Shown one piece after another: positions 922-962 of a stretch of DNA of 10,407 bases. Every line of letters begins with the position of its first letter. Within the stretch, counting starts at the first letter, position 1. Made by a program: the position numbers and the translations under genes. Location of the stretch: the IMG/VR virus record IMGVR_UViG_2563366840_000004; one strand, 5' to 3'. The notes beneath the pieces are model-generated. The model was given only the letters and a program-made list of their open reading frames with translations, was not told the origin of the DNA and did no database searches. Source of the stretch: a virus. Taxonomy: Duplodnaviria > Heunggongvirae > Uroviricota > Caudoviricetes.

Positions 922-956
922 CTCGTAGAATCGGTTAACACACCAGATTCTACGAG
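922..956 (+). promoter_or_regulatory. Perfect 11-bp inverted repeat (CTCGTAGAATC-N13-GATTCTACGAG) in the leader of the first operon gene
   Basis: Seen directly: arms at 922-932 and 946-956, 13-nt loop containing the palindrome GTTAAC. The right arm overlaps the GAGG Shine-Dalgarno (954-957) of the ORF starting at 963. Confidence 0.5.
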
Positions 957-962
957 GTTTCA

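Follow-up and report, generated by a model that had tools for sequence, protein, structure and literature searches.

The sit tail operon of a P1-like phage-plasmid is preceded by a perfect inverted repeat, which is real and conserved and most likely functional. We consider it probable that the repeat acts as a promoter-in-hairpin translational gate, which insulates pmgC, the gene at the head of the operon, against transcription from outside. This reading is based on the geometry of the site, predicted thermodynamics, conservation, one compensatory change, and the co-directional arrangement of the upstream genes; where exactly the late mRNA starts, whether and in what quantity read-through RNA arises, and how strongly translation is affected are inferred.

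The window (the whole stretch of 10,407 nucleotides that was analyzed) is a segment of a P1-like phage-plasmid comprising IS1 followed by the sit tail operon, a structural operon of ∼9 kb in the order pmgC-tub-pmgB-sit, then baseplate genes and R (Table 1). Its first gene, pmgC, is essential in P1 (essentiality table, PMC10695390). Homology to P1 starts at position 864, and from there onward the sequence is 98% identical to phage P1 (AF234172, from 46675 downward, minus strand) and likewise to ∼500 P1-like phage-plasmids found in E. coli, Salmonella, and Klebsiella. IS1 stands in place of the sim genes of P1 and the sim terminator, both of which are gone. The element lacks the 9-bp target duplication (left flank TATGATGAA, right flank CCCACCTAC; positions 1-95, 96-863, and 864-872), and to its left lies a fragment of a phosphodiester glycosidase family gene, which adjoins IS1 in many E. 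coli chromosomes. Because no target duplication is present and the left flank is of the chromosomal type, the junction looks as if the sim genes had been lost, together with the terminator, in a rearrangement or cointegration mediated by IS1, and not as if IS1 had simply inserted.

Table 1. Features at and upstream of the start of the sit tail operon (positions in the window).
Feature	Position	Strand	Remarks
Chromosomal-type gene fragment	1-95		
IS1	96-863	+	insA/insB pointing towards pmgC; thousands of IS1 matches over 1-864
IS1 ORFs	151-426 and 345-848	+	
LPsit −22 box	913-921	+	P1/P7 GenBank annotation, transferred by alignment
Left arm, CTCGTAGAATC	922-932	+	Anti-RBS strand; contains LPsit −10 TAGAAT (926-931)
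Loop, GGTTAACACACCA	933-945	+	LPsit start expected at ∼937-940 by sigma-70 geometry
Right arm, GATTCTACGAG	946-956	+	Holds GAG of Shine-Dalgarno GAGG (954-957)
pmgC, first gene of the sit tail operon	963-1529	+	ORF; 98.9% identity to P1 PmgC; P1 annotation

A sequence-only reading of the window had drawn attention to a perfect 11-bp inverted repeat with a 13-nt loop containing GTTAAC and a right arm that includes most of the Shine-Dalgarno (SD) sequence, and all of this is confirmed (Table 1; GTTAAC at 934-939). The right arm is followed by GTTTCA and then by the ATG at 963. The repeat is the sole perfect one of at least 11 bp in the 10.4-kb window (repeat finder, arms at most 60 nt apart), where ∼0.07-0.15 would be expected by chance per 10.4 kb (10407 positions × 28-60 spacings/4^11). 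The proposed check by RNA folding, run on 900-985, yielded −21.3 kcal/mol compared with −10.5 ± 2.3 kcal/mol for dinucleotide shuffles (z = −4.7), none of 200 shuffles being as good. When 100-200 nt of upstream context was included, a stem of 11-14 bp was predicted to stay over the SD in both the MFE and the ensemble folds. No Rfam family was matched; the lone match, to CRISPR-DR16 on the minus strand, was at chance level (15 bits vs a gathering score of 35, E = 0.65). Extrusion of the DNA as a cruciform was rejected on general grounds, given the 13-nt spacer.

That the hairpin is not a classical terminator had also been stated correctly: its stem is 5/11 G+C, it is followed by GUUUCAAUG and not by a U-tract, and the terminator scan did not flag it. 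Could it nevertheless influence the transcription or stability of read-through RNA and not its translation, i.e., as a pause, weak termination, or processing site or as a barrier to decay? The strength of the stem (∼−21 kcal/mol) and the three U residues that follow it would suit such a role, but the missing U-tract, the silent terminator scan, and the low G+C count of the stem do not, and with 11-14 bp the stem is shorter than typical RNase III substrates, which are longer than this. As the placement of the stem exactly over the SD would also be left unexplained, we regard this possibility as very unlikely.

At this same site, the GenBank records of both P1 and P7 carry the Lpa-dependent late promoter LPsit, the −10 of which falls within the left arm when the annotation is transferred by alignment. 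From the alignment of nine annotated P7 late promoters, a −22 consensus of ACAAGTGACT was derived, with a spacer of 5 nt between it and a −10 of the form TANNNT. LPsit reads ACAAATGACT (911-920; identical to the consensus at 9 of 10 positions), ACTCG, and TAGAAT, which is the register of the other annotated P7 late promoters. According to a review, P1 has 11 Lpa-dependent late promoters, at which Lpa has to bind to the conserved −22 repeat (PMC10695390); that LPsit activity depends on Lpa (and on host SspA) is taken from the P1 and P7 annotation and from the statement in this review. A promoter scan found no −35-type sigma-70 promoter at LPsit, which is to be expected because the promoter is activator-dependent. 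An antisense promoter using the mirrored TAGAAT on the minus strand was considered and dismissed, as neither a −35 nor a −22 box is found there.

Sigma-70 holoenzyme starts transcription 6-9 nt downstream of the −10, and this geometry, applied to the annotated −10, would place the LPsit start in the loop (Table 1). With the −10 in the left arm and the start in the loop, the late mRNA would therefore not contain the left arm and could not form the hairpin; a late leader starting at 938 is predicted to have no significant structure (z = −0.46 vs shuffles). Thus, for the late transcript, two earlier proposals would fall away, namely that the hairpin stabilizes its 5′ end and that it controls its translation, and sequestration of the ribosome-binding site (RBS), which had been put forward for RNA in general, would hold for transcripts arriving from upstream but not for the late mRNA. 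An element acting on the late mRNA itself is conceivable in principle, as the hairpin lies near the RBS, if transcription starts upstream of 922; given where the annotated −10 lies, the start expected from it, and the unstructured leader that results, it has hardly any probability. Within pmgC, CTCGAAGAC (981-989) is similar to the left arm, and in the late transcript its predicted pairing with the right arm is weak (−7.4 kcal/mol, no better than shuffles).

The difference between the two kinds of RNA was quantified as the opening energy, i.e., the free energy required to free the RBS (about −15 to +3 relative to the start codon) from pairing. Two transcripts were compared for each P7 late promoter: one that begins 7 nt downstream of the −10, and the same one extended by 45 nt of upstream sequence. 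For LPsit of P7, the opening energy was 3.5 kcal/mol for the late transcript and 14.3 kcal/mol for the read-through RNA, the latter value being reached by 0.3% of random genomic upstream segments and by 0 of 300 shuffles. The window, with its IS1 sequence upstream, behaved alike (6.1 vs 14.4-15.3 kcal/mol), as did Cronobacter phage JK004 (4.9 vs 18-19 kcal/mol). Since both arms are present only in RNA coming from upstream, masking of the RBS should, by these predictions, be restricted to such RNA.

RNA from upstream is to be expected at many of these loci. Immediately in front of the LPsit −22 box (window ∼864-911), P1-like elements have a cargo hot spot, where at least six gene sets unrelated to one another occur (simC, P7 upf50.0, and ORFs of 158, 394, 256, and 419 aa; the loci include L004, L015, L028, L033, L042, and L074). 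Homology between the elements always resumes at the −22 box, at ACAAATGAC. The upstream genes are mostly co-directional with pmgC and end 59-210 nt before its ATG. In P7, the terminator scan detected no terminator-like site between the upstream gene and pmgC. No room for a terminator is left where the upstream ORF stops just 59 nt short of the ATG (L015 type) and where the stop codon abuts the −22 box (type with the 158-aa ORF). In the window, it is IS1 that abuts the promoter and reads in the same direction. Because the upstream genes are mostly co-directional and, in some contexts, no terminator was found or could fit, read-through into pmgC is expected, from the gene arrangement, in many natural contexts and, in the window, from IS1. 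The sequence-only reading had also rightly considered that the repeat might insulate the operon from IS1 read-through. P1 itself has the sim superimmunity genes at this position and a terminator-like hairpin after simC (2924-2943 of the P1 locus, L001), which makes the gate less needed there. A predicted sigma-70 promoter of P1, P1pmgC (L001, 2893-2943), has its −10 at 2916-2921, just before this terminator-like hairpin; its transcripts would start in the left arm of the terminator and escape termination, yet carry the whole LPsit hairpin.

A dyad not kept in related elements would have counted against the sequence-only reading; it is present in every P1-like relative examined. A set of 86 P1-like loci (58 haplotypes) was retrieved through the PmgC protein and is, for this reason, unbiased as to the hairpin. 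None of the 22 arm positions varies in this set, as opposed to 9 of 30 other promoter and leader positions (p = 0.007) and 59 of 189 third codon positions of pmgC (p = 0.0007). The loop has five variable sites among the P1-like loci, and GTTAAC belongs to the variable stretches. As many relatives have GGTAAC instead, and the JK004 clade (see below) has no such motif, GTTAAC was rejected as a feature of the loop. Part of the arm conservation is accounted for by the −10 hexamer and the SD alone, and most P1-like sequences are 97-100% identical.

A second clade, whose PmgC is ∼75% identical, comprises Cronobacter phage JK004, Salmonella plasmids, and IMG/VR contigs. Its sequence is ACACATGACAA CTCGTAAAATCGG CTGAAGAT CCGATTTTACGAG GTTGGC ATG, with TAAAAT as the −10 and GATTTTACGAG as the right arm. 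Here, G928 is replaced by A together with replacement of C949 by T, a compensatory change from a G-C to an A-U pair. The stem is a perfect one of 13 bp, the loop (8 nt) is unrelated in sequence, and the arm spacing is 12 compared with 13 in the P1-like elements. Over 13 distinct haplotypes, 100% of the cells were paired, with 10 of the 11 pairs invariant and one changed on both sides, in a single compensatory event on one deep branch. This indicates that pairing was maintained in evolution; the covariation support is real but, because it derives from a single evolutionary event, modest. Intermediate clades were sought in plasmids, viral contigs, and metagenomes, and only the JK004/Salmonella clade was found. 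The pmgC homologues of D6, Serratia, Pantoea, and Erwinia (52-62% aa identity) were considered for a covariation test and set aside: they have neither LPsit nor the hairpin, pmgC lying within a longer operon directly after a bplB-like gene, and are, therefore, uninformative in this respect.

These data also bear on whether the complementarity has any function at all. If the left arm were kept as a −10 and the right arm as SD and leader, their pairing could be a historical accident, and it is true that 6 of the 11 left-arm bases are those of the hexamer, that 3 right-arm bases belong to the SD, that most of the sequences compared are nearly identical, and that only one pair covaries. However, only ∼0.1 perfect 11-bp repeats are expected per window and this is the sole one found; positions 946-953 and 922-925 are invariant despite having no promoter or SD role, whereas the adjacent loop and flanks vary; and where PmgC has diverged by 25%, the G to A change in the −10 is matched by the C to T change in the right arm and the stem has become longer. 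An accidental origin is, thus, unlikely.

The other alternative at the level of DNA, already raised in the sequence-only reading, is an operator, where a dimeric regulator would bind two 11-bp half-sites extending from the −10 to ∼+18 and repress or modulate LPsit. In favour of this, the dyad is perfect and extends over the −10 as well as the region of the start, and invariant arms in the P1-like elements are what an operator would also predict. On the other hand, no second copy of the 11-mer, with at most one mismatch allowed, exists in 100 kb of P7, and no other late promoter has a copy; the dyad is unlike the C1 operators in the annotation of P1 and P7, which are asymmetric and 17 bp long; and the centres of the half-sites are 24 bp apart, i.e., ∼2.3 helical turns, which is not an integral number. 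In the JK004 clade, moreover, the spacing is altered from 13 to 12, the spacer is replaced, and one pair is changed on both arms. Because both arms change at once, this points to RNA pairing and not to a protein site. We, therefore, give the operator little credence.

Whether other late operons share the dyad was also checked, as the sequence-only reading had suggested; none does, and no other P7 late promoter carries the arm sequence. Read-through-specific masking of the RBS, irrespective of sequence, was significant at two of the eight late promoters tested, LPsit and LPdar. At LPdar (34322-34369 of the P7 locus L091, minus strand), CCTCCT lies downstream of the −10 and upstream of the expected start and has the AGGAGG SD of lydA, the holin gene, as its pairing partner, and the opening energy was 7.7 kcal/mol for the late transcript vs 14.4 kcal/mol for the read-through RNA (p ∼0.01-0.02); by this prediction, read-through RNA from lydC would be masked at lydA. 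In the lydA leaders of JK004 (L103) and D6 (L104), which differ in sequence, an upstream segment again appears to pair at or next to the SD. LPmat, LPpro, LPlyz, LPs, and LP23 showed no read-through-specific masking in the opening-energy test, and LPpac was suggestive but not significant (p ∼0.1-0.3). Accordingly, three repeats that had been seen by eye, CTCTTCC/GGAAGAG at LP23, CCTTAA/TTAAGG at LPpro, and CTTTCGT/ACGAAAG at LPpac, were discarded, the first two being unsupported when compared with random upstream segments and the third not being significant. As these three fail the test, no general rule for P1 late promoters is claimed, and because six of the eight promoters show no significant masking, the hairpin is an add-on at particular promoters and does not define the family. 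In the window (9147-9171 and 9172-9221), a G+C-rich hairpin (TCACCCCGTCC/GGGCGGGGTGA) directly follows gene 16 and extends, with its right arm, into the −22 box of the late promoter LPs (GGTGACAAGTTACTT ... TACAAT), which lies upstream of gene R; the hairpin and the promoter box have bases in common.

Taken together, the gate might operate as follows. RNA entering pmgC from upstream, whether its source is IS1 (window), the sim operon or promoters predicted for sigma-70 (P1), or other cargo (relatives), would carry both arms and fold into a hairpin of 11-14 bp in which the SD is buried, and pmgC would not be translated. Rho-dependent polarity, together with the tight spacing of the genes, would then presumably silence the tail operon behind it; masking of pmgC would silence tub, pmgB, and sit only if polarity or translational coupling operates. 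Late in the lytic cycle, Lpa would activate LPsit, and RNA polymerase, using the −10 in the left arm, would start in the loop and produce a late mRNA with a 5′-UTR of ∼25 nt, without the left arm and with an open RBS.

A mechanism of this kind is already known, and LPsit is, by comparison, probably a new instance of it, in P1. For the T4 genes e, soc, 49, and I-TevI, both strands of a hairpin that sequesters the SD or start codon are present in the long transcripts made from upstream promoters, and a late promoter in or next to the 5′ strand gives rise to late transcripts that do not contain this strand and are translated; for gene e, a 100-fold effect was shown experimentally (PMC3014915). 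LPsit is like the e-type arrangement in that the left arm contains the −10, the loop is expected to contain the start, and the right arm contains the SD. The differences are that the promoter consists of a host sigma-70 −10 and an Lpa-dependent −22 box in P1 but is of the gp55/gp33 type with TATAAATA in T4; that the gated gene of P1 is a tail-morphogenesis gene heading a ∼9-kb operon in a temperate phage-plasmid; that the competing RNA would be made, probably in the lysogen, from IS1 or from accessory genes that vary, and not from early lytic promoters as in T4; and that gating in T4 was established by experiment, whereas in P1 it is proposed from sequence and predicted folding. A second parallel is found in insertion sequences, where outside transcripts of IS10 and IS50 carry a segment from upstream of the element's own start, which pairs with the RBS of the first gene and leaves it untranslated. 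Such fold-back inhibition in IS10/Tn10 and protection in IS50 were reportedly described by Davis, Simons and Kleckner in 1985, Krebs and Reznikoff in 1986, and Schulz and Reznikoff in 1991. LPsit would resemble them in that translation from outside transcription is blocked by pairing with the RBS, and differs from them in that they concern transposase genes of insertion sequences and have no temporal switch by an activator. Within P1, LPsit shares the −22 box, the register, and the TANNNT −10 with the other Lpa-dependent late promoters (LPs, LPdar, LPlyz, LPpro, and others) and departs, by its predicted masking of the RBS, from the six of the eight tested that showed no significant masking. 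No mapping of start sites in P1 and no description of the LPsit hairpin was found in the searchable literature, a scope beyond which the primary P1 papers lie.

A more far-reaching proposal is that the LPsit hairpin is a portable insulator that permits swapping of cargo just upstream, with LPdar/lydA being gated alike; this we hold to be possible but doubtful. If it were true, sim, lipoproteins, other ORFs, and IS1 could be expressed in the lysogen, with their transcripts running on into the tail operon, without synthesis of tail proteins, because only Lpa-started RNA would have an open RBS; and if lydA were indeed gated in the same way, promoter-in-hairpin gating would recur in P1 and add to its late control a layer that has not been described so far. 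The gate, if it exists as proposed, would also offer a simple and portable design for synthetic biology, a promoter whose −10 lies inside an anti-SD arm.

P1 is a paradigm of temperate phages and a common phage-plasmid vector of resistance genes, and its late control is usually described as purely transcriptional, with repression by C1 followed by activation by Lpa. Should the gate at LPsit operate as proposed, it would add a post-transcriptional safety layer, in which translation of pmgC depends on which promoter made the RNA, and it would explain how diverse cargo and insertion sequences can reside directly upstream of an essential structural operon without leaky synthesis of tail proteins.
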